Shown: positions 1 through 16,932 of the stretch, piece after piece | Layout: each line of letters starts with the position of its first letter | How positions within the stretch are numbered: the stretch's first letter is position 1 | Assembly (NCBI GenBank): GCA_021513695.1 | Contig: CP084166.1 | Coordinates: forward strand, 1,344,001-1,408,000 | Length of the DNA: 64,000 nucleotides | Reading direction: 5' to 3' | Origin: Candidatus Heimdallarchaeum aukensis | Lineage (GTDB): Archaea > Asgardarchaeota > Heimdallarchaeia > Heimdallarchaeales > Heimdallarchaeaceae | Made by a program: the position numbers and the translations under genes | The notes under the pieces: generated by a model | The model's database searches: none | What the model saw: the letters and a program-made list of their open reading frames with translations, nothing else | What the model was told of the DNA's origin: nothing

Positions 1-514
1 CAACTATATCCCATGTTACGATACCTGTTTCAGGAAGATCAGGAGATTTAATGACCACGCGTTCATTTTTTGTGTTTGAAGGATAATATTTTGCATTTGG
101 TATCGAATTTTCTTTTACTTCTGTATTTAAGTTTCCACCTGTACGCCTATCTTGATGATCAATTACAGACAAATCAAAATCTGATCCTTTTGGCGTTTGA
201 AGAAAAATGACAATTTTTCCAATTCCCTCTGTTGCATTAATATCAAACGTGTGATAAGGTCCTGTTTGATGAACAGTAGTTATTTCTCCTCTGAAGGCAA
301 ATGTTTCTGCTGCACTTGGTATATAAACTGCACCAGAAAGTATCAAAAGGAGAGGTATAACCATCCAAATAATAAAGACAATAGAAACAATAGCAATAAT
401 CACATTAGTTGAAGGGTCTCTTAAAAGCTTTACATAAAGCGTGTCAATAATCTTTCTCTTTCTTTTTAGCTTTTTTCTTTCTGATTTTTTCTTATTTAAA
501 CTTAAAGTGGCCAT
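1..514 (-). CDS. Partial CDS. Start ATG is at 514-512 on the minus strand and the ORF runs off the window edge. Hypothetical N-terminally membrane-anchored protein (MATLSLNKKKSERKK... followed by a hydrophobic helix IIAIVSIVFIIWMVIPLLLILSG)
   Basis: My own translation of the reverse strand from 514. There is a long open frame with no stop before position 1. A basic N-terminus is followed by a TM helix. The ORF track does not list it because it is incomplete. Confidence 0.4.
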   Translation of the reverse strand, partial: MATLSLNKKKSERKKLKRKRKIIDTLYVKLLRDPSTNVIIAIVSIVFIIWMVIPLLLILSGAVYIPSAAETFAFRGEITTVHQTGPYHTFDINATEGIGKIVIFLQTPKGSDFDLSVIDHQDRRTGGNLNTEVKENSIPNAKYYPSNTKNERVVIKSPDLPETGIVTWDIV

Positions 515-585
515 TATGTAGTCTTTTTATTATGTCTTTTAATATTTTTCTCAAAGGAAGAAAAAAGAAATAAAATAGAAAAACT

Positions 586-2082
586 CTATCTTCGCTTCCT
601 TCTTAGTACAATAACAAGAGTTGCAAAACCAATAATTGAGAACAATGTTGATACAGGTGTTTTTGTAGGAGTTTCTGTTGTATTATCTTCTCCTGGAATT
701 CTACCGATTTCATCAATTATTGCATTATATTTTTGTTTAGCAAAATTCTTCCATTCACTTCTCTTTGCTGAAGCAAAGTTGGGGTCGGTTTGAAATTCAT
801 CATTCCATTCAATTGATTCGTTTAATGTCATTCCTACCTCAGTCAACTGAGCACTTAGCTCTTCAAATTTTTCTTGTGTAATATTACCGTCTTTTAGCCT
901 TAAAACCATTGATCCCCAAGCTTCTCTTAGAAGATCATGATTTGCTGTAATTGTTTCATGGAAATAGTAAATTGTTGTATCCAAGTTAGAAACTGCGAGT
1001 TCTTCATCAAAGACAATTCCTTCATTATCTAAAGTTTCATTATACAGTGCGTAAAGAGCTTGACCATTTTCAGTTTGACCAGCATCTGTGTGGAAAGCAG
1101 ATTCTAATACAGGTAACCTATCTAATCCCTCTGTAAACCAAACAGCTTGACCTTCTGGGGATTCTACAAATTTAATAAAAGCTTTTGCAGCTTCATAATC
1201 ATCAACATTAGCACCGAGAGCGATGGGATCACCATTGACAATTGATTGACCTTCTGGAATTATATATTCACAATTGGGATTTTCTCTCATTGCGATAACT
1301 CCATAAAAGTCTATTGTCATAGCAACTCCTACTTCACCATTAATAACAGCTGCACGAGTATCTACAGAACCAGGATAAATACCAGCATTAGCACCCATCT
1401 TGGTTATAATCGCCCATCCTTTTTCCCATCCAAATGCTTGAAGAATAATTTGGTAAATCCTTGTATTAGAAGTTGTTTCAGGTGGATCACCCATGCTTAT
1501 GGCTCGAACATCAGGGGAAACATAGAACTCGGGAGAAGCTAGTTCTTCCCATGTATGAGGAACTGGAAGACCTTTATCACTTAAAAATTGATGATTGACA
1601 GTGAAACCAAAGGAGGAAATTGCGGAAGCAACAAACAAAAGGTTGTTATCTTCATCCCACCACTTCATTGCAGCTCCTGCAATTCTATCAGGAACTGTTT
1701 CATTTAGATAGTTTAGTAAATCAGGGTCATCTATAGGTTTAAGAGCTTTATAATTGGCCATTGTACTAAATAAAGCTGGTCCTCCTCCCCAAGCTACATC
1801 TACACCCTTTGAGGCATCTTTGAGTAGACTTCTCCAACCATCATCAGTACTTACTGATTTAAAATCAATATCACTAATTCCTAGATTTTGAGCTTCTTCA
1901 GTAGCTAAGAATTTCTCCTTAAATTCATTTGTAATAGTTACGTCGTGTCTCGTAACAACTGTAAGAACGATATCGCCTTTCAAATCAGATTGATTATCTC
2001 TTGTTATATCTCCGTTAACTGCTGCAGTTGAGGATACAGCAATTAAAATAACGAGGATAAGAAAATTAATTTCTCTTTTCAT
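586..2082 (-). CDS. Extracellular solute-binding protein (ABC-transporter substrate-binding protein fold). It has an N-terminal signal peptide and a C-terminal TM anchor followed by RRKRR
   Basis: 498 aa. The hydrophobic N-terminus is MKREINFLILVILIAVSS. The length and composition are typical of a periplasmic-binding-protein fold. The C-terminus is ...TLFSIIGFATLVIVLRRKRR, which looks like an archaeal-type membrane anchor. No permease or ATPase partner is adjacent. Confidence 0.5.
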   Translation of the reverse strand: MKREINFLILVILIAVSSTAAVNGDITRDNQSDLKGDIVLTVVTRHDVTITNEFKEKFLATEEAQNLGISDIDFKSVSTDDGWRSLLKDASKGVDVAWGGGPALFSTMANYKALKPIDDPDLLNYLNETVPDRIAGAAMKWWDEDNNLLFVASAISSFGFTVNHQFLSDKGLPVPHTWEELASPEFYVSPDVRAISMGDPPETTSNTRIYQIILQAFGWEKGWAIITKMGANAGIYPGSVDTRAAVINGEVGVAMTIDFYGVIAMRENPNCEYIIPEGQSIVNGDPIALGANVDDYEAAKAFIKFVESPEGQAVWFTEGLDRLPVLESAFHTDAGQTENGQALYALYNETLDNEGIVFDEELAVSNLDTTIYYFHETITANHDLLREAWGSMVLRLKDGNITQEKFEELSAQLTEVGMTLNESIEWNDEFQTDPNFASAKRSEWKNFAKQKYNAIIDEIGRIPGEDNTTETPTKTPVSTLFSIIGFATLVIVLRRKRR

Positions 2083-2260
2083 AATAATACCTTCTTTTTT
2101 TTTAGTTATTATAACAATCGACCAAACTCTTTAAATCTTTTTGTTATCTTATGGTGATAATTTAATAATACTTGAAAAATTTAAATTAAAAGAATTTTAT
2201 TTCAAGTAAGTTTTGTATATAGAAAAAAATATTAAATGAGTATATAAAGAAAGTTAAAAG

Positions 2261-3838
2261 ATGATAATAATGAAAAAACAAGTAATTTCACTTATTTCAT
2301 TACTACTAATTTTTAGTATGATTCATTCAAATTACTCTGTTAGTTATACTTCAACTGATAGAGATTTAGAAATAATAAACTCTGAAACTAAAGAAATGCC
2401 TAGTTACAACAAAGTTGTTTTCATAACATGGGATGGTGTTCGAGAAAAATGGTTTGAAGAACTTACAGCTGACAATACCTTGGGAAATGCTAGTAAAGTT
2501 GTTCAATTAGGTCATCTACAAAAAGTAAGGATTACCACCCATATAACTTCAACAGACCCAGGATTGAGTACTATGGAAACTGGATACGGTGACGCTATTC
2601 ATGGAATATCAGCAAATCAATTCGGCCCTGGCTCTCCTAAATTAAGCATCCCTGATGGACTAACAACAACAGAAAGGTTGAAAGCTGCTTTTGGAGATAA
2701 TATTAAAACAGGAATGTTCTTGCCTTGGTCTTTTCACCAAATAAACGAAGAATATATGATGCAAGAAGGAAATTATACCGATACTATTTTTGCAAATATA
2801 AAAATTGGTGTAGATGTAGATTATTGGTTTGCTTCTGAAAATTTAAGTTGGACACCAGATGATAATGAATCTCTTAGAGCAATATATGAGGGATACTCCA
2901 ACGATAATCATGGTTTTCATCCTGATGTAGGTATGTTTTCAGATCCTTTGATTAAAAGCTCGTATCTTGCTGAGCAGATAACCAAATTCTTGGATTTATA
3001 TGCAGATGATTCTTTCTATATAAGAACTCACTTCACAGAACCAGATACAGTTGGACATGGATATTTCGAATCAAAAGATGGAGTCATAACACCAGAATAC
3101 AAAACTGCACTGATACAGTGTGACGAGGCATTAGGAATCATATTAAATAAACTTGAAGAAGAAGGAATTTTAGAAGATACATTAGTTATTGTTGGAACAG
3201 ACCATGGTTTCTATAAAGAGTCTCACGATGGAGAACCTTGGCCTAATGGAAAAATAGCAGTCACTCAACAGGTTTTTGCAATAAGTAAGAATGATGTTAA
3301 GACCAGTCAGGATATTGCAATTGCTCAAATGGACATTGCTCCCACAATACTATCAGTTTTAGGAGTGGATATTTCTACTTTGACTCCTGCGTACACAGGA
3401 GAAGATGAAACAGGAATACCTATCTGGGATAAAATTGATGATGATGCACCTAGATTAATTAAAGTTCAATATCAACTAGAAACACAATACATTCCTAGAG
3501 ATTTCGAAAACGGTTCTAAAATTAATGAACCATTTGATCTATACTTACAAATAAATGAATGGAGTGACATCAAAGCAGTTTCTATGAAAACTGAAGATGA
3601 CAAAATAATCGAACCTTCATCGATATCGAATACTCAAATAATCTGGGAAAAACTAGACAAGAGTGTGCTTGGAGGAGGTTCTCATAGTTTAGTCGTTACA
3701 ATTACAGATGAGTTCGATTTGACTACTCAAATAACTATAAACATTAATGCTGGAGGAGTTAGTTATAGCTGGTTCTATTCAGTTATTGCTTTGTCCCTAG
3801 TTGCTATTCCAATACTTGTAAAGAGATACAAAAAATAA
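2261..3838 (+). CDS. Secreted alkaline-phosphatase-superfamily enzyme (type I phosphodiesterase / nucleotide pyrophosphatase-like) with a C-terminal TM anchor
   Basis: 525 aa. Signal peptide. The FITWDG...R segment is early and GTDHGF is a metal-ligand-like motif typical of the AlkP/ENPP core. C-terminal anchor SWFYSVIALSLVAIPILVKRYKK. Many NxS/T sequons. Confidence 0.55.
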   Translation: MIIMKKQVISLISLLLIFSMIHSNYSVSYTSTDRDLEIINSETKEMPSYNKVVFITWDGVREKWFEELTADNTLGNASKVVQLGHLQKVRITTHITSTDPGLSTMETGYGDAIHGISANQFGPGSPKLSIPDGLTTTERLKAAFGDNIKTGMFLPWSFHQINEEYMMQEGNYTDTIFANIKIGVDVDYWFASENLSWTPDDNESLRAIYEGYSNDNHGFHPDVGMFSDPLIKSSYLAEQITKFLDLYADDSFYIRTHFTEPDTVGHGYFESKDGVITPEYKTALIQCDEALGIILNKLEEEGILEDTLVIVGTDHGFYKESHDGEPWPNGKIAVTQQVFAISKNDVKTSQDIAIAQMDIAPTILSVLGVDISTLTPAYTGEDETGIPIWDKIDDDAPRLIKVQYQLETQYIPRDFENGSKINEPFDLYLQINEWSDIKAVSMKTEDDKIIEPSSISNTQIIWEKLDKSVLGGGSHSLVVTITDEFDLTTQITININAGGVSYSWFYSVIALSLVAIPILVKRYKK

Positions 3839-3850
3839 CAAATAATTCTC

Positions 3851-3858
3851 TTTTTTTT
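3851..3858. terminator. Oligo-T/oligo-A tract between convergent genes. Candidate bidirectional archaeal terminator
   Basis: A T8 run lies immediately between the stop of the + gene (3838) and the stop of the - gene (3857). Confidence 0.3.
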
Positions 3859-4300
3859 AAATTTGTCCCCAAGAAATAAATTTTCCATCTTTTCTCTTAA
3901 CTAAAACAGAGCCAAATTTTCTCCATTGCTCTTCTCTAAATCTAATAATTTGGTAGTCGTCTGGTGTAGTTTTCTTTTTTAGTTGAAGTAGTTCTGAAAG
4001 CGAGAGTTTTTTCTCATAAAAAAGCCGAGTAATATATTTCCCTTCTTTCTCTCCCAGATCCACTTCTTTTGCGATGTTTAACAAATGTAAAACAGGAAGG
4101 TTAGAAAAAAGAGATGAGTGAGAAGAAGTATATACAGAACCTGGACATATAGGTTCATTTTTGTATTCCTCCACGCATTTCTCACAGAAAATTAATTGGC
4201 ATCCGTTACATATTTTCCATTGTTCAAGTACAGCCTCTTTTAGTGGAGATTGGTTTTTACAAAACGCACATTGGACATAATAATCTAAAATATTAGTCAC
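3857..4300 (-). CDS. Cysteine-rich zinc-finger protein (C-x2-C ... C-x2-C-x4-C-x2-C ... C), co-oriented with the smc operon and overlapping it
   Basis: 147 aa with YYVQCAFCKNQ...WKICNGCQLIFCEKCVEEYKNEPICPGS. Its start overlaps the stop of the upstream ScpB-like gene by 4 nt. Confidence 0.4.
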   Translation of the reverse strand: MTNILDYYVQCAFCKNQSPLKEAVLEQWKICNGCQLIFCEKCVEEYKNEPICPGSVYTSSHSSLFSNLPVLHLLNIAKEVDLGEKEGKYITRLFYEKKLSLSELLQLKKKTTPDDYQIIRFREEQWRKFGSVLVKRKDGKFISWGQI

Positions 4301-4875
4301 AGTTTCTCATACTCCTCTTTAATTTTTATTCTTTCATCTTCATCAAACTCAAGGAGAGTTCTATAGTTATAATCTATAAAATTTGATTTTTTTCTAATAT
4401 AACCTTTATATGTAAGAGATCTTATGCTTTCATTTACTAAATACTCCTTGAGATAATCATTAGATGTTAAGAACTCTTTAATTTTTTTAGTCGTTATCTT
4501 TTTCTCTGATTCTCTTAAACCTATTATTACTCCCAAAACAGTTAATTCTGCTTCATTTAATTCTGGAGGAGCAAAATAGTTGGATTTTAGGCATAACCAG
4601 GTTTCAACACCTATTTTGTAATAAACTAATTCTAGCCCCAGAATTGAAATAAAAGCTTGATACTCTTCTAGAATGTGTTCAAGTGTTGCTATGTCGACTC
4701 TGGTTACTATTAATAGATCTTGTTGAGAAACGCCAAAAACTTCAACATTATCTTTAATCCATCGTCTGGTTAATATCGTTGTTAATTCTCTAAAAAGTTC
4801 TTGCCGTTCTTTATCTGTAATTAATGGAGATAATTTTTGTTCTTTATCTGTATTATTGTTTTCCATTTTATTCAT
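4297..4875 (-). CDS. ScpB-like candidate (tandem winged-helix protein) downstream of smc and the kleisin-like gene
   Basis: 192 aa. Its position is third in the smc operon, with overlapping start and stop codons. It is predicted to be two winged-helix-like halves. The assignment is positional plus weak pattern similarity. Confidence 0.35.
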   Translation of the reverse strand: MNKMENNNTDKEQKLSPLITDKERQELFRELTTILTRRWIKDNVEVFGVSQQDLLIVTRVDIATLEHILEEYQAFISILGLELVYYKIGVETWLCLKSNYFAPPELNEAELTVLGVIIGLRESEKKITTKKIKEFLTSNDYLKEYLVNESIRSLTYKGYIRKKSNFIDYNYRTLLEFDEDERIKIKEEYEKL

Positions 4876-5563
4876 CTTCTTCTTTTTTTGATGATAAAAG
4901 GAGTGAACTTGACATCACAGCTCCCTCTTCAGATGAGGGTTTACAAAAACATATCTTATCTCCATCAGAGACAGCAATTAGTTTCTTTTCAGATGTCATC
5001 TTTGAAAGCACTTCCAATTCTATGGAACTCAATAACTTTTCGAGTTCACTTTTTCTCATTTCTTTATTCAACAATTTTTCTTCTACTTGTTTTTCTAAAC
5101 TCATAAGATCACCATAAGTTAATATTTCAGACTCAAGCTTTTTGTCTCGTCTTATATCCCAGAAATCGTATTTTTCATCAATTTTGGGTTTAATTGTCAG
5201 TTTTTCTGGTTTCTCAAGTTGAAATATAGAATAGGGGGATGTCTTTTTTCCTATTACAGAAATTAAAGGAGTGGCATTTTTTCTTACAAAATTAGAAAAA
5301 GACTTTATCCTACTTTTACTTTTCAGAATGTTTTCTAAATTAAGTTCTTCTCTAAGTTCATGCATTAAAATATAGTCTTCATAAACCTCTGCATCCAATA
5401 TTTTTTCTCTGTTTTGCATTAGATATTGATAAATGTCAGAAGTTTGTTCTCTATCCTTTTCTGACTCTTCAACAGATAATGAAATCTTCTTTTTTAATAA
5501 TTTCTTGTATTTTTTTTCAATTTCAAAAAGTGTAAGCAAGAGAACATCATAGTCTTCTTCCAT
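4868..5563 (-). CDS. Kleisin (ScpA)-like candidate immediately downstream of smc
   Basis: 231 aa. Its start overlaps the smc stop at the single base 5563. It is charged and helical. There is no strong motif and the call is mainly by synteny. Confidence 0.3.
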   Translation of the reverse strand: MEEDYDVLLLTLFEIEKKYKKLLKKKISLSVEESEKDREQTSDIYQYLMQNREKILDAEVYEDYILMHELREELNLENILKSKSRIKSFSNFVRKNATPLISVIGKKTSPYSIFQLEKPEKLTIKPKIDEKYDFWDIRRDKKLESEILTYGDLMSLEKQVEEKLLNKEMRKSELEKLLSSIELEVLSKMTSEKKLIAVSDGDKICFCKPSSEEGAVMSSSLLLSSKKEEDE

Positions 5564-8541
5564 TATTTTCGCACCTTTGTTTCTATCAGAACATTATGAT
5601 TAAAATCCTCATTTAATTTCACATCTTCAATTCCAGGACTGATTAAAATAAACTGAGGGACAATCAATCTATTTTGTTTTGCAAGAAGGTAAACAGAATA
5701 AGCTACCGAGAAGGCATAAGCTCTGTTTTTTTTATCTAACTTTTGAGTAAATTCATCAATTACATGTAAAGGAGAATGACTAATTAGATGTAAAGAGAGA
5801 ATAATAGCTTGAGCAATAAGTGTTTTTTCACCACCGGACAGTTGTCGATAATTTAAGTTTTTATTTTTGGTTTTTGCTGAAATAATCAAGCTAGCTTCTT
5901 TTTCGTTTTTATAATTAGTAATTGAGATAGAGATTTCTTCAAATACTTCACTTAACAAATTTTTGAGAGAACCATTCAAGTGATCTACAATCTTTTGTAA
6001 GGCACTTGTCCATTGATCTAATCTTTTTTCTATATCAATTCTTAAATTCTCCAAATGTTTATTTCCTTTCTCAATTAACTCTTCAAGTTTTTCTACTCTA
6101 ATTCGTTGAGAATTAATTGTTTCTGTGCTTATATTTGTTTGAATTTGGATATACGACAGTTGCCCTTTTATCTCATGAACCTCTGAAGCAATAAGCTCCC
6201 GTTCATCTCTTATTGTATCAGGACGATCACCTATTTCTTCAATCTGTTTTTTGAGTTCATCGATAGTTTCTTGAAGACTTGGAAGTTCTGCATTCAATTT
6301 GTTAAGAGTTGTAAGTAAATTCTTTTTATTTCTTCTATATTCTTGTATCTCGTTCTCTAAATTATCCAACTGATTGCGTGTTGTAAAATGAGCTTTAGAT
6401 AACTTGTCTATCTTTTCCAGAAGAGAATTAAGTTTAGTATCGTATTCATTTAATTCTTCTTGAATTTTTTCAATTAATTCCTCTTCTTCTCTAATTTCTT
6501 CTTCTAATTTTTCTTTTTCCATAAATAAATTTGTTAACTCGGTGGATACATCTGATTTTCTAGCAAATAAAAATAAGTCATTATCTATTTCTCTTTTTTT
6601 AGTTAACAGCTCCCCCCTTTTTGAATTAAGTGAAAATTTCTCTCTAATCAACTGCTCTTTTCTAGCTTCTATTTTGGATATTTTCTCCCTTAAAATTTCT
6701 GTAGATTTATAAGATTTTAAATCACTACCAAGCTTTACTCCTAAAACAGGAGGAGGGTTAGAAAAAGCTTCTCTTGAAAGGTAATAACTTTTACAATCAC
6801 TTGTTAAAATATTTGATTTATATTGTTTGGCATAATCAGTGAGAAGATTTGCGCCAATTGTTGAATCAGCTATAATCGTCTTCCTGAACTTTTTGAGATA
6901 CTCTAATACTTGATAAGGAGCATCAATTAGATTAACTGCATAGTCAATTATTCCTGTTTTTTTACCACTAATTTCTAACTTTCTTTTATAATAGTCAGGT
7001 TTTGGTCCTTCTTGCTCCAAAACTCTTCCCACAGTTAGTTTAATTGTTCTATTTTGCGTTATCCTAATTTGGTCAAAGATTTCTTTTGCTTTTTCATATG
7101 CTTCATAACTTATAGCTACAAAATCAAATAACGAATAACTTATAGCTGTTTTTATTGCTTTTTCATATTTTTCAAATCCTTCTTTTATTGATACAACTTG
7201 ATAAATAGGACCTATAATTTCATTGGAATATTTTGATTGATCAACCTTATCTCTAAACAGTTTACAATCATCTAATCTTCGTCGTTCCTCTTGCTTTAAG
7301 TTACCTAAAAAAAATGAACGTTCATCTATTATATTTTGAGTTCTTTCTTTTTCTTTTTCTAATGTTTGAATGATATTGTTTATTTCACTAATTCGTGTAT
7401 CAACATCTTCAATCTCAGTCTTTATTTTATTAAGTTGATCTTGAAGTTGTTGTTTAGTTTTAAGACCTTCTTCACTTGTAAATAATTCTAATTTTTTCTC
7501 TCTTTTCTCAATTTCAAAAATCCTATCATATTTGCTTTGGACCAATCTCCTTTTTTCTTCTAACATTCCTTTTTTATAGGTTGATTCAGACCTTAGAGAA
7601 TTAATCGATTTATTTAATTGTTCCTCTTCTTCCTTTATTTTATTAAATTGAATTAGAATAGAGTCCTTTTCTTTTTGTAACTTCATCTCTTTCTCTTGGT
7701 AGGACTTAAATTTATTATTGACTTTCTCTGTTTCTTTTAAATGATTTTGATACACTCGCTCTGCTTCTTCAAAGTCATACCATGTCAATTCTCTTGTAAC
7801 CACTTCGAGTCTTTGAATCAAATTATTTTTCTTTGTAATTAAGTCATAATCTTTTTCCATTTGTTGAAGCTTACTTCTTTCCTTTTCTAGTTGCATAACT
7901 AGAGGAGAATGTTCTCGTTGCATTTGATTTAACTTTTTCTTTGATTCAAAATATGATTGATAGATTTCATTTAGGCCTGTAGCAACAAGTAAAGTTTCTA
8001 GTTTTTTATGTGGAGAACCTTCAGCAAAAGCGTTTAAATATCCTTCTTCTGTGAAATTTAACATCGTATCTTCAAATATTCCTATTTGTTTCATGAGTGC
8101 TTGGATTTGTCTCTTTGTTACTATTCTTGAGCTTCCATCCAATGCCTTTATTTTCCTTACAGATTGATTTTTTTTAATTTCAAGCTCCACAATAAAAGAA
8201 TCCCTATTATTTACAAAAAGTTCAATATCTGGATCAGAAGATTGAAAAGGTCTCCTTTCACCCAACAAAGGGTTTGAAATGAAAAGTTGAATAACGGCAG
8301 AATCTCCAAAAGAACCAATTAATTCTTCTTTCTTACCGAGAGCTACTCTTGTGGGTGTATGCCCAATTACTAAAATTAAAGCTTCTAAAATTTGGCTTTT
8401 CCCGCTCCCATTAGCACCAGAAATGACAATTAACGGTTTTTCCATTAAATCTAATTCAGTATACTTATGCATTTTGAAATTTTTAATTACCAGTTTGTTG
8501 AAAACATACTTATTAGAACTTTCTGAATCAATAATTGTCAT
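5563..8541 (-). CDS. smc: SMC-family chromosome segregation ATPase (short, 992 aa) with Walker A, coiled coils, a hinge-like segment and a C-terminal signature/Walker B
   Basis: N-terminal Walker A is GANGSGKSQILEAL. Long heptad-rich K/E/L coiled-coil regions. The central hinge-like segment is IIGPIYQVVSIKEGFEKYEKAIKTAISYSLFDFVAISYEAYEKAKE. The C-terminus has LSGGEKTLIAQAIILSL followed by HVIDEF. Confidence 0.8.
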   Translation of the reverse strand: MTIIDSESSNKYVFNKLVIKNFKMHKYTELDLMEKPLIVISGANGSGKSQILEALILVIGHTPTRVALGKKEELIGSFGDSAVIQLFISNPLLGERRPFQSSDPDIELFVNNRDSFIVELEIKKNQSVRKIKALDGSSRIVTKRQIQALMKQIGIFEDTMLNFTEEGYLNAFAEGSPHKKLETLLVATGLNEIYQSYFESKKKLNQMQREHSPLVMQLEKERSKLQQMEKDYDLITKKNNLIQRLEVVTRELTWYDFEEAERVYQNHLKETEKVNNKFKSYQEKEMKLQKEKDSILIQFNKIKEEEEQLNKSINSLRSESTYKKGMLEEKRRLVQSKYDRIFEIEKREKKLELFTSEEGLKTKQQLQDQLNKIKTEIEDVDTRISEINNIIQTLEKEKERTQNIIDERSFFLGNLKQEERRRLDDCKLFRDKVDQSKYSNEIIGPIYQVVSIKEGFEKYEKAIKTAISYSLFDFVAISYEAYEKAKEIFDQIRITQNRTIKLTVGRVLEQEGPKPDYYKRKLEISGKKTGIIDYAVNLIDAPYQVLEYLKKFRKTIIADSTIGANLLTDYAKQYKSNILTSDCKSYYLSREAFSNPPPVLGVKLGSDLKSYKSTEILREKISKIEARKEQLIREKFSLNSKRGELLTKKREIDNDLFLFARKSDVSTELTNLFMEKEKLEEEIREEEELIEKIQEELNEYDTKLNSLLEKIDKLSKAHFTTRNQLDNLENEIQEYRRNKKNLLTTLNKLNAELPSLQETIDELKKQIEEIGDRPDTIRDERELIASEVHEIKGQLSYIQIQTNISTETINSQRIRVEKLEELIEKGNKHLENLRIDIEKRLDQWTSALQKIVDHLNGSLKNLLSEVFEEISISITNYKNEKEASLIISAKTKNKNLNYRQLSGGEKTLIAQAIILSLHLISHSPLHVIDEFTQKLDKKNRAYAFSVAYSVYLLAKQNRLIVPQFILISPGIEDVKLNEDFNHNVLIETKVRK

Positions 8542-10661
8542 AGTGGTATAATAGTAATATAGGTTATGCTATATAAACAATTCAATTTTCTCAAAAAATT
8601 ATAAAAAATTTAGAAAATCTAACAATAAAAAAAAGAAAAAAAGCTAAAATTTTAGAATTTAAATTTTAAACTTCTTTTTGATAGTGATTATAGTAGCAAC
8701 AACTAGGATTGAACTTAGAGAGACATATACTAGATCAAGTGATCCTATTCTTCGTGTTTTGTCTTGTCCACCAGTGTAAATGTCTGCTCCAGCACTTGAA
8801 CCAGTTGAGGTAGATTCACCATAATCTTCCCATGTATCTGCTTCTTGTGTTGTACCATCCATGTTCAATAGTACTGCAGAGGTTTCTCCTCCGCCACCAT
8901 TTTCACCTAGTTCATTTTCAAATCTACTGTCATAAATAACTTGAGCTCCAGGTAAGAAACATCCATTACTGGTGAGGAACATCCAATGCATGGTAATCGT
9001 TACAGTTTCATCAGGAGCAAGTGTTATACCTTCAAATTTTATTAATCCCATTCCTAAATAAGTTGTATTTGAAGTGGTACCTTCAGTTGTAACTTGGAAC
9101 ATTAATTCAAGTTCAGAAACATTGTAGTATTGAATGACAGTGATATGTGTTTCTGATTCACCAATGTTGGTAATAACAAGTTCTACTTCCAACTCCCAAG
9201 GAGCGTTTTCAGGAATAATGATATCAACATTTGTAACTATATCAAGTATTGGTTGTGGGAATGCTGGTTCCATTGCAGCTTCTTTAGGTAGCAATAAAGC
9301 CCAAGCCATGTTTGAAATAACTATTTCATGAGCTTCAGCTGCTCCTTCGAAGTAACCTACTTCATGAGTGAATGGGTTAACTACTTCTGCAGGACCTTGT
9401 CCTTCATCACTGATGAATTCTACAACAGCATAAACAGGGTGGATGCCTAAGAAAGTGTTTGCTTCAACTTCTACTTCGAATGTAACTTTTTCTCCAACAG
9501 CAACAGTACCTATTTCCTCTGTGTAGAATAGATCAGGATTTACTATTTGCCAAGTTCTATCCATAGCTCCATGGAATAGATAGAGTTTCACATTTGTAGC
9601 ATCAATGTTTCCTGTATTTTCAATATATCCAGTGATTGTAACATTATCTCCGACTTGGTAAGCTAGTTGATCTAACTCTACGTATGTGTTAAGTACAGCT
9701 TCATCGTCTGCAATCTGGAAGTTTATTCCATTACTGAATCCGAAGTACTCAAATCCTTCAGGATCGTTATACTTGAATCTTGCTCCAGCAGAAATCCAGA
9801 TATCTTCAGCATAGTCATAGAAACTGATGGGACGACCATAGGCGATTTGTCCAGCCCAATCAGAGAAACCTAGAATAACTCTCATAAGCTCATAGAAATC
9901 ATGTAATTCTGTTGTTAATCCTGCTGCTTTTGTTCCATCTCCATTGTCAATTGGATGTATGTACATCGAACCTAAAACCCAATTTTCATTAGGAATGTTT
10001 TCTAAAGCCCAACTAACTTGAGTCCAACTGTCAGGGTCTAAATTCTCTATTGTTGTCTCAAGATAATATTGAGTAACTATTTCTGTTCCAACAGTGACAT
10101 TTACTGGAACAATCTCAAAGTCCATTCCATTAAAGTCAAAAATTGTTTGGTTTTGATATAGTAAGTTGAACAGGTCTTTTGCTGCATTATCAATTCCATT
10201 TTTTAATTTATCCTTATAGTCTTCAAAAAGTGCATCCCAATCACCATTGTAGTCAGATATGGATATATTTGCTAGGAATTGAGTTGCTCTGTTTACCAAT
10301 ATGTTGCTTAATCCTTTAGACGAATTAAGTTTTACTTCAGTACTAACAGTATAAGATAAACTACCATATTGAATGGTTGTTGTTTCTGTTTTGACTGTTG
10401 CTTCAGTGATAGTTGGATCAATATCAACTAAGGAACCGTTATCATAAACATACCAACCTTCCAGTACCATCATTGTCTGGTTGTAGTTTTGGTATTCTTC
10501 TCCATCAACAGTAATTATTATACTAATATCTACAGGAATGTATTCGCTTTCATTGACGGTTACATCATCTCTCAATCTAAATATCGATGGAAGGTGACTG
10601 TAGAATTTCATGAAATCGCGACCTAGTGGATAGCTTATTGTAATGTTCTTTGCAGGTTCAG
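7924..10661. repeat. Tandem direct repeat, copy 1 (unit about 2738 bp). It contains the 5' 615 nt of smc, the smc/surface-protein intergenic region and the 3' about 2 kb of the surface-protein gene
   Basis: Base-by-base comparison with 10662-13400 shows identity throughout. The one exception is a poly-A length difference (A8 near 8611-8618 versus A7 at the corresponding site near 11349-11355). The ORF track confirms this: the 650 aa ORF equals the C-terminus of the 1015 aa ORF, and the 214 aa ORF shares its first 205 aa with SMC. Confidence 0.9.
8659..10611 (-). pseudogene. Truncated duplicate of the surface glycoprotein. It is the C-terminal 650 aa starting at an internal Met, has no signal peptide and keeps the C-terminal TM anchor
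   Basis: Identical in sequence to the C-terminal 650 aa of the 1015 aa ORF at 11396..14443. It lies inside repeat copy 1 and the upstream part of the gene is replaced by the duplication junction. Confidence 0.55.
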
Positions 10662-11279
10662 TTGATTTAACTTTTTCTTTGATTCAAAATATGATTGATA
10701 GATTTCATTTAGGCCTGTAGCAACAAGTAAAGTTTCTAGTTTTTTATGTGGAGAACCTTCAGCAAAAGCGTTTAAATATCCTTCTTCTGTGAAATTTAAC
10801 ATCGTATCTTCAAATATTCCTATTTGTTTCATGAGTGCTTGGATTTGTCTCTTTGTTACTATTCTTGAGCTTCCATCCAATGCCTTTATTTTCCTTACAG
10901 ATTGATTTTTTTTAATTTCAAGCTCCACAATAAAAGAATCCCTATTATTTACAAAAAGTTCAATATCTGGATCAGAAGATTGAAAAGGTCTCCTTTCACC
11001 CAACAAAGGGTTTGAAATGAAAAGTTGAATAACGGCAGAATCTCCAAAAGAACCAATTAATTCTTCTTTCTTACCGAGAGCTACTCTTGTGGGTGTATGC
11101 CCAATTACTAAAATTAAAGCTTCTAAAATTTGGCTTTTCCCGCTCCCATTAGCACCAGAAATGACAATTAACGGTTTTTCCATTAAATCTAATTCAGTAT
11201 ACTTATGCATTTTGAAATTTTTAATTACCAGTTTGTTGAAAACATACTTATTAGAACTTTCTGAATCAATAATTGTCAT
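10635..11279 (-). pseudogene. Truncated duplicate of the smc 5' end. The N-terminal 205 aa including Walker A are followed by 9 junction-derived residues (LNLQRTLQ) and a stop
   Basis: The first 205 aa are identical to SMC (5563..8541). The reading frame crosses the duplication junction at 10661/10662 and terminates. Confidence 0.55.
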
Positions 11280-13400
11280 AGTGGTATAATAGTAATATAG
11301 GTTATGCTATATAAACAATTCAATTTTCTCAAAAAATTATAAAAAATTTAGAAAATCTAACAATAAAAAAAGAAAAAAAGCTAAAATTTTAGAATTTAAA
11401 TTTTAAACTTCTTTTTGATAGTGATTATAGTAGCAACAACTAGGATTGAACTTAGAGAGACATATACTAGATCAAGTGATCCTATTCTTCGTGTTTTGTC
11501 TTGTCCACCAGTGTAAATGTCTGCTCCAGCACTTGAACCAGTTGAGGTAGATTCACCATAATCTTCCCATGTATCTGCTTCTTGTGTTGTACCATCCATG
11601 TTCAATAGTACTGCAGAGGTTTCTCCTCCGCCACCATTTTCACCTAGTTCATTTTCAAATCTACTGTCATAAATAACTTGAGCTCCAGGTAAGAAACATC
11701 CATTACTGGTGAGGAACATCCAATGCATGGTAATCGTTACAGTTTCATCAGGAGCAAGTGTTATACCTTCAAATTTTATTAATCCCATTCCTAAATAAGT
11801 TGTATTTGAAGTGGTACCTTCAGTTGTAACTTGGAACATTAATTCAAGTTCAGAAACATTGTAGTATTGAATGACAGTGATATGTGTTTCTGATTCACCA
11901 ATGTTGGTAATAACAAGTTCTACTTCCAACTCCCAAGGAGCGTTTTCAGGAATAATGATATCAACATTTGTAACTATATCAAGTATTGGTTGTGGGAATG
12001 CTGGTTCCATTGCAGCTTCTTTAGGTAGCAATAAAGCCCAAGCCATGTTTGAAATAACTATTTCATGAGCTTCAGCTGCTCCTTCGAAGTAACCTACTTC
12101 ATGAGTGAATGGGTTAACTACTTCTGCAGGACCTTGTCCTTCATCACTGATGAATTCTACAACAGCATAAACAGGGTGGATGCCTAAGAAAGTGTTTGCT
12201 TCAACTTCTACTTCGAATGTAACTTTTTCTCCAACAGCAACAGTACCTATTTCCTCTGTGTAGAATAGATCAGGATTTACTATTTGCCAAGTTCTATCCA
12301 TAGCTCCATGGAATAGATAGAGTTTCACATTTGTAGCATCAATGTTTCCTGTATTTTCAATATATCCAGTGATTGTAACATTATCTCCGACTTGGTAAGC
12401 TAGTTGATCTAACTCTACGTATGTGTTAAGTACAGCTTCATCGTCTGCAATCTGGAAGTTTATTCCATTACTGAATCCGAAGTACTCAAATCCTTCAGGA
12501 TCGTTATACTTGAATCTTGCTCCAGCAGAAATCCAGATATCTTCAGCATAGTCATAGAAACTGATGGGACGACCATAGGCGATTTGTCCAGCCCAATCAG
12601 AGAAACCTAGAATAACTCTCATAAGCTCATAGAAATCATGTAATTCTGTTGTTAATCCTGCTGCTTTTGTTCCATCTCCATTGTCAATTGGATGTATGTA
12701 CATCGAACCTAAAACCCAATTTTCATTAGGAATGTTTTCTAAAGCCCAACTAACTTGAGTCCAACTGTCAGGGTCTAAATTCTCTATTGTTGTCTCAAGA
12801 TAATATTGAGTAACTATTTCTGTTCCAACAGTGACATTTACTGGAACAATCTCAAAGTCCATTCCATTAAAGTCAAAAATTGTTTGGTTTTGATATAGTA
12901 AGTTGAACAGGTCTTTTGCTGCATTATCAATTCCATTTTTTAATTTATCCTTATAGTCTTCAAAAAGTGCATCCCAATCACCATTGTAGTCAGATATGGA
13001 TATATTTGCTAGGAATTGAGTTGCTCTGTTTACCAATATGTTGCTTAATCCTTTAGACGAATTAAGTTTTACTTCAGTACTAACAGTATAAGATAAACTA
13101 CCATATTGAATGGTTGTTGTTTCTGTTTTGACTGTTGCTTCAGTGATAGTTGGATCAATATCAACTAAGGAACCGTTATCATAAACATACCAACCTTCCA
13201 GTACCATCATTGTCTGGTTGTAGTTTTGGTATTCTTCTCCATCAACAGTAATTATTATACTAATATCTACAGGAATGTATTCGCTTTCATTGACGGTTAC
13301 ATCATCTCTCAATCTAAATATCGATGGAAGGTGACTGTAGAATTTCATGAAATCGCGACCTAGTGGATAGCTTATTGTAATGTTCTTTGCAGGTTCAGTT
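10662..13400. repeat. Tandem direct repeat, copy 2 (2737 bp). The novel junction is at 10661/10662 with tt microhomology
   Basis: As above. Sequence after 13400 (cctgtgtttg...) and before 7924 (...gttctcgttgca) is unique. Confidence 0.9.
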
Positions 13401-14443
13401 CCTGTGTTTGTAACGTTGTAATCCATTTGTAATATTCCTTGAGTATTTAGCAAGTCTTGATCATAAGCCATGTTTACAGCTACTCTGGGTGCAGAACTTA
13501 ATTCATTATAGTTAATGTTAAACACTACTTCAAAGTTGCTTGATGTTAATCTTACATACCAAGGATTCTGCATTACCCAATCCATTTTTCCAGTTATTTG
13601 TGGTGCAAAGTTATCAGTATCTGGTGAAATTGATATGGGATTGATTGTATATGGGAATCTGAATTTGACTACTGAGAATGTTTCATATGCTGGGTCATCA
13701 AATATTGTTACTTCTTCTCCAAATAAATTGTTCGTTGATAAAGTATATTCGCCACCTGATGAAACGATAGCATCTGGATCAACATAAGAAATAGCTCTTA
13801 TTGCTCCTTTGCCCATGTATTCTCCAACAGCTACAGCTTTTACTGGTGATGCTACAACATCTGCTGGATCTACAACTGATAAGAATCCTGTAGCAATATC
13901 TGTTTGCATTTCTCCTATAAGATCAGTAAAGACTGCGTCTGTGATTCCACCTGTAAACTTGTAAACGTAGGTTCCATATTCAGTTGTAAGTGCTCCAGAC
14001 CAATAAAGGTCTATACCATAATAATCACTGAATGCAGCAGCAATTGTCAGAGCTTCTTCTAAACTCTGTTCTGCTGTTAATGTTTTCACTAATTCAAGAG
14101 CTAATGTAGCATTTTCAGGAGCTCGATATGGTCTCCTCACGAGATAATCATGGTAGCCATCTTGATCAGTTACCACAAAAATCCAATTGATGACGTTATC
14201 CATCAAACTTTCTGGAGTTATCTTTAGTGCTGAAGGACCTCCAACAGTAGTAATTTTGACCAAAGCAGCGGTGTCAATACCAGCAACTATCTTCATTTCT
14301 TCATAAAATAATGAAGATAAAGTCTTGGTACTTGCAGAATCAAATTGATCTGCTGCACCTAATGCTTGGGTGTAAGAACCACTAAAAGTTAACAATATTA
14401 AAGCTAACCCCATTGTCATAACAATAGACATTTTATTTTTCAT
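11396..14443 (-). CDS. Large secreted cell-surface (glyco)protein, 1015 aa, with signal peptide, numerous N-glycosylation sequons, a Gly-rich linker and a C-terminal TM anchor
   Basis: The N-terminus MKNKMSIVMTMGLALILLTF is a signal peptide. There are more than 25 NxS/T sequons. GENGGGGETS is followed by a C-terminal LDLVYVSLSSILVVATIITIKKKFKI anchor. Confidence 0.65.
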   Translation of the reverse strand: MKNKMSIVMTMGLALILLTFSGSYTQALGAADQFDSASTKTLSSLFYEEMKIVAGIDTAALVKITTVGGPSALKITPESLMDNVINWIFVVTDQDGYHDYLVRRPYRAPENATLALELVKTLTAEQSLEEALTIAAAFSDYYGIDLYWSGALTTEYGTYVYKFTGGITDAVFTDLIGEMQTDIATGFLSVVDPADVVASPVKAVAVGEYMGKGAIRAISYVDPDAIVSSGGEYTLSTNNLFGEEVTIFDDPAYETFSVVKFRFPYTINPISISPDTDNFAPQITGKMDWVMQNPWYVRLTSSNFEVVFNINYNELSSAPRVAVNMAYDQDLLNTQGILQMDYNVTNTGTEPAKNITISYPLGRDFMKFYSHLPSIFRLRDDVTVNESEYIPVDISIIITVDGEEYQNYNQTMMVLEGWYVYDNGSLVDIDPTITEATVKTETTTIQYGSLSYTVSTEVKLNSSKGLSNILVNRATQFLANISISDYNGDWDALFEDYKDKLKNGIDNAAKDLFNLLYQNQTIFDFNGMDFEIVPVNVTVGTEIVTQYYLETTIENLDPDSWTQVSWALENIPNENWVLGSMYIHPIDNGDGTKAAGLTTELHDFYELMRVILGFSDWAGQIAYGRPISFYDYAEDIWISAGARFKYNDPEGFEYFGFSNGINFQIADDEAVLNTYVELDQLAYQVGDNVTITGYIENTGNIDATNVKLYLFHGAMDRTWQIVNPDLFYTEEIGTVAVGEKVTFEVEVEANTFLGIHPVYAVVEFISDEGQGPAEVVNPFTHEVGYFEGAAEAHEIVISNMAWALLLPKEAAMEPAFPQPILDIVTNVDIIIPENAPWELEVELVITNIGESETHITVIQYYNVSELELMFQVTTEGTTSNTTYLGMGLIKFEGITLAPDETVTITMHWMFLTSNGCFLPGAQVIYDSRFENELGENGGGGETSAVLLNMDGTTQEADTWEDYGESTSTGSSAGADIYTGGQDKTRRIGSLDLVYVSLSSILVVATIITIKKKFKI

Positions 14444-14631
14444 TTTTGACCTCCAAAAATTTGTCTAATACTAAGTATTAAACATCTATAATATAAAGAT
14501 TATTTTTGTGAGTTATAAAAAAACAGAATTCGAAAAAAATCGAACATTCAAAAACATCGATTATAGTAGGCTTTTGAAAAGTAATTAACAATTTATCAGT
14601 CTTAAAACACAGAGAAAACAAAAAAAAATGA

Positions 14632-15600
14632 TTATAATAGAGATTTTAGAGCTTTTTTGTAATCTTTTGTGGCTTCCTCGGGCAATGTACCATTAATAAA
14701 AACCCCCAAGCTGGACTCTACTGCACCAAGTATTTTTAATGATTGTTTATTTCGCTGAGGAGTGTGAAGTTTAAAATACATGTGATAAATGTTTGGAAAT
14801 TCAGATAAATTGAAAACTTTTTGATGAAGAGAAAGAGAATAGCTCACTTCTTTACCAAATATTTTTGACAAACTTTTAACCAACCTCGGCAATAGCTTCG
14901 CAAAAGCTATAAGTTCTTCTTTAGTACTTTCTTCTAATTGTCCATAGCATCTCTTTGGATAGATATACAGATCATAAGCATATTGAGCTGAAAAAGGTAC
15001 AACAGCTATTAAGAATTGATCTTCAAAGACTATTCTTGAAGTAGCTTTTTTCTCAAAGTCTAAATATTTACATGTCACACAAGTTTTTTCACTAATAATA
15101 AATTCCTTAATCTTCTTCAATTCATTTTGGATTGTATGGGGAACAAATGAGAATGCATAAATTTGTCCATGAGGATGAACTATTGATGCGCCAACATCTT
15201 GTCCAAAATTCTCAAAAGGTAAAATATATTTTATTTTCTCATATTTTGTTAGCTGTCTTGTTGCTTCAATCCACTTTTCAAAAATAGTGAGTATTTCATC
15301 AACTTTTAACTCATGAAATTTTTTATTATGTTCTGCGCTATAAACTAGAACCTCACATTTACCATAAGCACTTCTAGATTTATGTAAGGCATCTTCTTCT
15401 TTACTCCAAAAACCCTCAAGAGATAAGCTTGGAAATTTATTGTCCAAACGTATAGGCTCATTAATGTTTACTCCAATTTCATCAGAACCTTTACAAAAAG
15501 GACAATAATCTTTTTTTCTATCAGGTCTTCTTTGTCTTTTTGGTGCATAGATTATCCATTCATCAAAGAAATAGTTGTACCTTAGTTCATTTTCTGTCAT
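14632..15600 (-). CDS. galT: Galactose-1-phosphate uridylyltransferase-like (HIT superfamily GalT)
   Basis: CPFCKGSDE is the zinc motif near the N-terminus. HPHGQIYAF is the characteristic GalT H-P-H active-site motif. Length is 322 aa. Confidence 0.6.
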   Translation of the reverse strand: MTENELRYNYFFDEWIIYAPKRQRRPDRKKDYCPFCKGSDEIGVNINEPIRLDNKFPSLSLEGFWSKEEDALHKSRSAYGKCEVLVYSAEHNKKFHELKVDEILTIFEKWIEATRQLTKYEKIKYILPFENFGQDVGASIVHPHGQIYAFSFVPHTIQNELKKIKEFIISEKTCVTCKYLDFEKKATSRIVFEDQFLIAVVPFSAQYAYDLYIYPKRCYGQLEESTKEELIAFAKLLPRLVKSLSKIFGKEVSYSLSLHQKVFNLSEFPNIYHMYFKLHTPQRNKQSLKILGAVESSLGVFINGTLPEEATKDYKKALKSLL

Positions 15601-15696
15601 TATTTTAAAAACCTAAAATTGCTTTTTAACTATTTACTTGATAACTTACCATAATATCTCTTTTTTATCCCAAAAACTTTTATTTAGAACGAAAAC

Positions 15697-16932
15697 ATGA
15701 ATATTGTGTATGGCACTTTAATTTTACATGCAAACCTTCAATATGCGGAAATTCCGAAATCTGAAATTCCTAATGTAGTTAATAACAGTTATATTCCTGT
15801 AATTTCAGAATTGATTGATAAACCTAAAGTCCAAGTTGCTTTTAATTTTACAGGAGTAACTTTAGAGATTCTGAGTAATGAATATCATGAAGTTATTGAT
15901 CTTCTAAAAGAAGGAATAAAGAAAAAGAAGTTTGAATTAACTGGTTGTGGCTATTCACACCCCATATTTCCTCTTTTACCCATTAATGATATAAAAAAGC
16001 AAATAGAATACAATGAAGCTGTACTGAAAGATGTTCTCAACTATAAACCCACAGGATTTTGGTTACCAGAGTTGGCTTATGACCCAACTTTACCTAGAAT
16101 ACTGAAAGAGTATGGTTATTCATACATTTTCATTGATGATGATTTGTATTCCAACAGCGAAGAATTAAAGAATATTGCCAACCCTTATAATTACCTTAAA
16201 CCAAATTTGGAAGCATATATTTCTGAATTTCTTAAAACGAAAAGTTTAGTTAAAAAGATCTTCAAGTTCTTTAAAATCAAAAAGGAGATACTAAATAGAT
16301 GTAAGATGCAAGACTTTTATCCTATTGAATTAAAAGGAGTAGGAGACACAATCACTGGGATAAGAGCTCCAAGAGCATGGTTTGTGCTAACTTATTCAGC
16401 TCTAATGAATTATCCTACAATTAATATCAATACTATCAAAAAGATGCTTTCTTATCAAAAGAACAAAAATGGATTAATAGTCCTTTATGCTATGGATCTT
16501 GAGTTTTTTGGTTATAGGAGTTATGTTGAAGGACATTTGGTTGATCACAAAGACTTGGGAAACATGCTAAGTAAACTAGTAAAAAATGATGAATTAAAAT
16601 TGATTCTACCCAGTGATTATTTACAGAAATTTAAACCAAAGAAATTAGGATACATGAGAACAGGTAGTTGGGCACCATATGGCTCATTAGATATCTGGAC
16701 GCAAGATGAAGACAATAAGAAACTAGAAAGATTGTGCAATGATGTTCGAATTTATTTAAATCATCTTCCTCCATCCGAAGAGAAAGAAAAAATATGGAAA
16801 TTACTATTACTTGCTGAAAATTCTGATGGAAGAGGATGGGACCCAATTCCAGAAAGAAGATTGGATTGTTTTTCTTACGCTGTAGAAGCATTGAATAGGG
16901 CAAAAAAAGAGTATGAGAACACTTTACTTTAA
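15697..16932 (+). CDS. Glycoside hydrolase family 57-like protein
   Basis: The N-terminal LHANLQY is close to the GH57 HQP region. GFWLPELAY matches the conserved GH57 WLPE(C)AY motif. Length is 411 aa. Confidence 0.45.
   Translation: MNIVYGTLILHANLQYAEIPKSEIPNVVNNSYIPVISELIDKPKVQVAFNFTGVTLEILSNEYHEVIDLLKEGIKKKKFELTGCGYSHPIFPLLPINDIKKQIEYNEAVLKDVLNYKPTGFWLPELAYDPTLPRILKEYGYSYIFIDDDLYSNSEELKNIANPYNYLKPNLEAYISEFLKTKSLVKKIFKFFKIKKEILNRCKMQDFYPIELKGVGDTITGIRAPRAWFVLTYSALMNYPTININTIKKMLSYQKNKNGLIVLYAMDLEFFGYRSYVEGHLVDHKDLGNMLSKLVKNDELKLILPSDYLQKFKPKKLGYMRTGSWAPYGSLDIWTQDEDNKKLERLCNDVRIYLNHLPPSEEKEKIWKLLLLAENSDGRGWDPIPERRLDCFSYAVEALNRAKKEYENTLL

Follow-up and report, generated by a model that had tools for sequence, protein, structure and literature searches.

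The stretch analysed here, referred to as the window throughout, is 64,000 nucleotides (nt) long and covers positions 1,344,001 to 1,408,000 of contig CP084166.1 from the Asgard archaeon Candidatus Heimdallarchaeum aukensis. On its minus strand lie a gene for an ATPase of the SMC family and, upstream of it, a gene for a predicted surface protein. A segment of 2.7 kb that reaches from the interior of one of these genes to the interior of the other is present twice, head to tail, and this tandem duplication is the subject of our report. The features that bear on it are as follows, in window coordinates.

7924-10661, duplication unit, copy 1: 2738 nt with the A8 allele, delimited by repeat search and extension.
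10662-13400, duplication unit, copy 2: 2739 nt with the shared TT counted in (unit length 2737 nt), carrying the A7 allele.
10661/10662, novel junction: ...GGTTCAGTT and then GATTTAAC...; all the 31-mers that cross it span 10634-10691.
5563-8541, minus strand, intact gene for the SMC-family ATPase: 992 amino acids (aa), with Walker A GANGSGKS at residues 42-49, LSGG at 901 and a hinge-like middle.
11396-14443, minus strand, intact gene for the predicted surface protein: 1015 aa, with a signal-like N-terminus and a C-terminal transmembrane (TM) helix.
10635-11279, minus strand, truncated duplicate of the SMC-like gene: 214 aa, the first 206 identical to the SMC-like N-terminus, then LNLQRTLQ and a stop.
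8659-10662, minus strand, promoterless and signal-less duplicate of the surface-protein C-terminus: 667 codons open from the junction.
8542-8658, minus strand, intergenic region, copy 1: a T7-C-T8 tract (8642-8627) and a TTTATATA box (8577-8570).
11280-11395, minus strand, intergenic region, copy 2: a T7-C-T7 tract and a duplicated putative promoter before the 214-aa fragment.

A repeat search followed by base-by-base extension found two direct copies with 0 substitutions between them. The match is perfect at an offset of 2738 over 7924-8633 and at an offset of 2737 over 8628-10663, and the sole difference is an indel in one A run (8627-8634, A8; 11365-11371, A7). The unit both begins and ends with TT, and the TT at 10662-10663 may be counted with the sequence on its left or on its right. 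No second repeat of at least 60 nt was found by the repeat search anywhere in the window, and a perfect repeat of 2.7 kb cannot have originated by chance. On the minus strand, the unit takes in 618 nt from the 5' end of the SMC-like gene, the intergenic region (116 or 117 nt) and 2005 nt from the 3' end of the surface-protein gene. The junction joins codon 348 of the surface-protein gene to codon 206 of the SMC-like gene. As the unit begins within one gene and ends within the other, each gene survives in one intact copy with its native upstream region, and the outer genes run uninterrupted.

The middle of the locus is chimeric. Along the coding strand, the intact surface-protein gene is followed by a putative terminator, a putative promoter, the 214-aa SMC fragment and the 3' part of the surface-protein gene; then come a putative terminator and a putative promoter once more, the intact SMC-like gene and the rest of its operon. 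The 214-aa fragment has the Walker A half of the ATPase head, lacks the half with the signature and Walker B, ends in eight out-of-frame residues (LNLQRTLQ) and is probably non-functional. The 667-codon frame that opens at the junction has its first ATG at 10611, 23 nt past the stop of the 214-aa fragment. This ATG begins an open reading frame (ORF) of 650 aa (8659-10611) that repeats the C-terminal part of the surface protein exactly and has no signal peptide; its expression as an internally initiated, anchored fragment would be speculation. A first-pass annotation, made from the letters of the window, had described the same two copies differing in A8 versus A7, the intact outer genes, the 214-aa fragment and the 650-aa signal-less copy, and our repeat search, extension and ORF coordinates agree with it.

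Is the junction present in the DNA of the organism, or was it made during assembly? The H. aukensis genome, PM71, is a metaSPAdes assembly of Illumina PE150 reads that was scaffolded by LRScaf with Nanopore reads from DNA amplified by multiple displacement amplification (MDA) and by PCR, polished with pilon at 346x and joined manually (PMC8813620). The duplication goes unmentioned in that paper. Because the genome was built from metaSPAdes Illumina contigs and corrected with pilon, both copies are of Illumina quality and are not raw Nanopore fill. For a view of the reads that does not depend on the submitters' pipeline, we used the Logan contigs of run SRR15988954, which derive from an independently built k=31 de Bruijn graph. 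In Logan, k-mers that occur a single time are dropped, Minia3 cleans the graph in a SPAdes-like way, and only contigs longer than 150 bp are reported (PMC12424806).

A tandem duplication at this locus is expected to break such a graph at 7953 (7923+30) and at 13371 (13401-30) and to leave a separate contig for the unit at 7924-10663. All three were found. The left-flank contig (_34; 38,390 nt) is identical to window 1-7953 and stops there, and the right-flank contig (_5926; 54,680 nt) begins at 13371 and is identical to the window over the 13,562 nt compared. Both reach 30 nt (k-1) into the unit, the overlap expected of a 31-mer graph. The unit forms a contig of its own, SRR15988954_67928, whose 2740 nt equal window 7924-10663 at 100% and which carries a partial SMC product of 206 aa at one end. 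We had predicted beforehand that a unit-only contig would encode a partial surface product of 667 aa, and the look-up of that product returned this contig. Over all matched stretches the Logan contigs are 100% identical to the window, and about 93 kb of contig contains no break besides the two duplication boundaries. The graph branches at exactly both boundaries, and therefore k-mers that run from the end of the unit to its start are present in the raw reads. A single-copy locus without junction reads would assemble unbroken, which argues against an unmerged overlap or a scaffolder artefact. Exact-product look-ups of the 214-aa junction protein and of the full 992-aa protein gave no match in the assembly collection searched; the absence from it of a contiguous junction and of an intact 992-aa gene is consistent with a Logan graph that is broken there. 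A 24-nt unit-end pattern that fits both the junction and the native contexts had 0 matches among the Joint Genome Institute (JGI) metagenome contigs.

Relatives carry the locus once. In a protein-guided scan of GTDB species genomes, the nearest genome was that of Ca. Heimdallarchaeum endolithica PR6 (CP084167.1; contig L001), with 86% aa identity for the SMC-like protein, followed by six Heimdallarchaeota metagenome-assembled genomes (MAGs) at about 44%. PM71 and PR6 are sister genomes with 88% average nucleotide identity (PMC8813620). By blastn against the reverse complement of L001, window 3001-10663 aligns with 7399-15097 and window 10659-15173 with 12356-16872. The alignments are colinear, and both window copies fall on one 2.7 kb segment of PR6 at 85-86% nt identity; PR6 has no long direct repeat at the locus. 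Three of the six MAG contigs span both genes (L003, L006, and L004 with a partial surface-protein gene) and carry one copy of each, while the other three end too near the locus to show copy number. PR6 and these three contigs thus have the single-copy arrangement that the first-pass annotation had proposed looking for in related genomes. Judged from these genomes, the duplication is specific to this strain.

The locus shows the marks of a recent tandem duplication: adjacent head-to-tail copies with one novel junction, next to no divergence between the copies and a single copy in the nearest relatives. The duplication is very young because there are no substitutions between its copies. The event is an ordinary structural mutation of a well-known type, of which this is a new instance only. 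That the junction exists in the DNA of the organism as a tandem duplication we hold to be highly probable; we are less sure of a fixed state with exactly two copies. The first-pass annotation had left the choice between a recent duplication and an assembly artefact to be made, and the breaks in the Logan graph at both boundaries together with the single-copy relatives favour the former.

What could mimic such a duplication? An unmerged contig overlap of 2.7 kb, or expansion of a repeat by the scaffolder, would place in the assembly a junction that exists in no DNA molecule. Unmerged overlaps yield just such perfect tandem repeats, the genome is metagenome-derived and hybrid-scaffolded, the discrepancy between the copies is a homopolymer difference of the kind that polishing leaves, and the 2-nt microhomology at the junction is at chance level (P=0.20). 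Moreover, LRScaf worked with short amplified Nanopore reads, and contigs were joined by hand (PMC8813620). However, an unmerged overlap leaves the read graph unbranched, and so do reads free of the junction, whereas the Logan graph branches at both boundaries, breaking at exactly 7953 and 13371 and isolating a 2740-nt unit. Moreover, repeats of this kind are usually collapsed by short-read assemblers, not expanded. We therefore consider an artefact of assembly or scaffolding very unlikely. We give just as little credit to a library chimera made by template switching during PCR or MDA, or to a 2.7 kb extrachromosomal circle, whether excised from a single-copy chromosome or unrelated to it. Either would produce the same graph as a tandem duplication, and the DNA of the Nanopore libraries had gone through both MDA and PCR. 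Chimeras, however, are random and of low multiplicity, and the k-mer filter (seen at least twice) and graph cleaning should remove them; Supplementary Table 6 of PMC8813620 names the NEBNext Ultra kit for the Illumina library and gives MDA for the Nanopore runs only. As for a circle, the unit contains no complete gene and no recognisable replication function, and its maintenance is implausible.

A heterogeneous population refines the tandem duplication rather than replacing it, and although we think it improbable, it deserves more weight than either of these alternatives. The junction would be real, but only some cells would carry it, or its copy number would vary (1, 2, 3 or more), and the two-copy consensus would be one assembler path through a loop in the graph. 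The sample was an ethane and sulfate enrichment, not a clonal culture, in which the lineage rose from 0.03% to 4-7% (PMC8813620). The topology of a de Bruijn graph is the same for fixed and polymorphic duplications, and the A7/A8 difference could stem from variant molecules. Tandem duplications are unstable and polymorphic in prokaryotic populations, which also counts in favour of heterogeneity. On the other side, the junction is probably not rare if cleaning removes links far below the coverage of their neighbours, and the SPAdes-like cleaning of Minia3 usually removes links of much lower coverage than those around them.

Several points tell against the tandem duplication itself and temper our confidence in it. 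The junction 31-mers are deduced from the contig breaks and the separate unit contig, not seen directly; the junction contig expected, 58 nt long and geneless, falls under Logan's 150-bp limit. The Logan read set is presumably from the same library as the submitters', and PCR template switching combined with PCR duplicates could mimic the junction, although graph cleaning should remove a chimeric link of low coverage. We infer that run SRR15988954 belongs to the PM71 sample, and its platform is taken to be Illumina from its perfect contigs of 38-55 kb. In the contig breaks, two fixed copies look the same as mixtures of 1, 2 and 3 or more copies or a variant in a subpopulation. Finally, the A7/A8 difference is possibly a polishing artefact: the Logan unit contig has A8 only, and copy 2 may owe its A7 either to polishing or to a genuine slip.

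If the tandem duplication is real, how would it have arisen? In Salmonella and E. coli, tandem duplications form spontaneously through illegitimate recombination that is independent of RecA and needs little homology or none. The duplication described here resembles them in being head to tail with one junction of zero to few nt of homology, in keeping intact gene copies, in copies that have hardly diverged and in close relatives that have a single copy. It differs in its host, an uncultured Asgard archaeon, and in that no complete gene lies within the unit, so that the usual rationale of selection for dosage is inapplicable. We propose that illegitimate recombination joined codon 206 of the SMC-family gene to codon 348 of the upstream surface-protein gene. 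Between sister chromosomes this could have come about through replication slippage, a switch of template or the joining of ends that had hardly any sequence in common. As the lineage grew in the enrichment, drift or a founder effect most likely carried the variant to an appreciable frequency, and homologous recombination between the copies would remove it again. The 2-nt TT microhomology, which the first-pass annotation had already noted and which lies at 10662-10663, is reached by 20% of random breakpoint pairs in the window. A similarity of 8+5 nt left of both breakpoints, AATGTTCT(CG)TTGCA, is too close to chance to speak for a mechanism, with P=0.018 only when the 30 nt on the left are chosen post hoc and P=0.19 at +/-30 nt. 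Neither 5000-16000 nor the whole window contains inverted repeats, and there is no transposase in or around the unit, which encodes just two gene fragments; duplication mediated by a transposon or insertion sequence (IS) is thereby ruled out.

Would the duplication have consequences for the cell? On the coding strand of the intergenic region, the stop of the surface-protein gene is followed by the T7-C-T8 tract and then by the TTTATATA box, some 32 nt ahead of the SMC-like start codon (ATG). Going by what is generally known of archaeal signals, the oligo-T tract is likely the terminator of the surface-protein gene, and the box is likely the promoter of the SMC-like gene, whose leader would be very short. 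PR6 has the identical TATA box, and its equivalent of the oligo-T tract is T7-C-T9 (L001 about 9903-9920). In this tract the length thus varies from T7-C-T8 in copy 1 (8627-8642) and T7-C-T7 in copy 2 (11365-11379) to the T7-C-T9 of PR6, and its homopolymer length is evidently labile or hard to polish. The duplicated promoter would drive the 214-aa SMC head fragment and then the promoterless 3' part of the surface-protein gene, with transcription ending at the duplicated terminator. A dosage benefit is unlikely because no complete gene is duplicated, and we regard the duplication as probably neutral. It is also conceivable that the duplication is maintained or amplifying, either since the 214-aa SMC head fragment interferes with or regulates an SMC5/6-like complex or since the 650-aa tail-anchored fragment has a new role at the cytoplasmic face; we rate this as the most improbable of the readings considered here.

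The intact SMC-like gene stands first in an operon whose other members lie outside the duplication unit.

3857-8541, minus strand, four-gene operon: 5563-8541 (992 aa), 4868-5563 (231 aa), 4297-4875 (192 aa) and 3857-4300 (147 aa).

The first-pass annotation had called the first gene smc. Membership of the SMC family stands, and identity as the canonical prokaryotic SMC is ruled out: the protein scores 119 bits against TIGR02168 (cutoff 567) and 84 bits against TIGR02169 (cutoff 729). Against Pfam SMC_N it reaches 54 bits (cutoff 40), which makes it a member of the SMC/Rad50 superfamily only. Its best solved-structure relatives include SMC6 and SMC3, and we consider it probably an SMC5/6-related paralogue. 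The genes of the operon have overlapping or adjacent stops and starts, and their order (SMC-like, 231, 192, 147 aa) is kept in PR6 (L001 10001-14685) and in five of the six distant MAG contigs (L002-L006). The 1015-aa surface protein as upstream neighbour of the operon can be checked in L001, L003 and L006 and partly in L004, L005 and L002. Among the JGI metagenome contigs, a protein-guided scan gave only L011 (Ga0190334_1050349; 1249 bp), which matches residues 848-992 of the SMC-like protein at 100% aa identity. One or more JGI metagenomes therefore hold this species or strain, and at its length L011 does not reach the duplication.

An operon for an SMC5/6-related complex, made up of an SMC, a kleisin and an Nse1/3-like kite protein, has been described in TACK and Asgard archaea (bioRxiv 10.1101/2024.01.07.573240; PMC8665677). 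The operon in the window resembles it in having a second, non-canonical SMC ATPase with Walker A, LSGG, a hinge-like middle and SMC6 among its matches, and in having small conserved genes after the SMC-like gene. It differs in a fourth conserved gene, which encodes the Cys-rich 147-aa protein. The 231-, 192- and 147-aa products have no matches in Pfam, NCBIfam or the PDB. The AlphaFold2 models of the 231-aa and 192-aa products, which would correspond to the kleisin and the kite protein, are poor. The operon is a good candidate for the archaeal SMC5/6-related complex operon.

The 147-aa protein (3857-4300, minus strand) has features of its own. Eight invariant residues resemble metal ligands, C11-x2-C14-x16-C31-x2-C34-x4-C39-x2-C42-x9-C52-x8-H61, and there is an invariant basic C-terminal motif, RFREEQWRKFGxVLVKRKDGKF. 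Pfam gives it faint hints of RING or B-box type only (E 0.3-0.5), and its single-sequence AlphaFold2 model is unusable, with a predicted local distance difference test (pLDDT) score of 37. A putative two-zinc domain protein tied to an SMC5/6-like operon is worth comparing with the RING domains of Nse1 and Nse2.

For the 1015-aa protein, the label surface glycoprotein is suggested by an N-terminus that is hydrophobic and signal-like, by a TM helix (about 987-1011) with KKKFKI after it, by 13 N-X-S/T sequons and by weak matches to CARDB and Ig-like domains. Its gene adjoins the SMC-like operon in other Heimdallarchaeota too, and the order galT, surface-protein gene, SMC-like gene is seen in L003 and L006, the two MAG contigs where it can be checked. 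The galT gene is intact in the window (14632-15600) and split in two in PR6 (L001 3888-4343 and 6193-6642). The PR6 gene contains an insertion of about 1.8 kb (L001 3888-6645) with a 504-aa TnpB/Cas12f-like ORF that matches Pfam Cas12f1-like_TNB (E 9e-9) and OrfB_IS605. From these matches, the insertion looks like one of IS200/IS605 type that inactivates galT.

What does the duplication mean for work on Asgard archaea? Its main value concerns genome quality and annotation, since a circularised and much-used genome of reference type carries two extra gene calls. The 214-aa "SMC" and the 650-aa "surface protein" are products of a recent duplication and should not be counted as paralogues in comparisons of gene content or in studies of eukaryogenesis. 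The defined junction can be tracked by PCR, and the dynamics of duplication and loss could be followed in enrichments. No new kind of system is revealed; rather, ordinary tandem duplication independent of microhomology operates in Heimdallarchaeia. If the non-neutral reading were true, the locus would show a new gene in the making, through duplication and fusion, in the archaea most closely related to eukaryotes.

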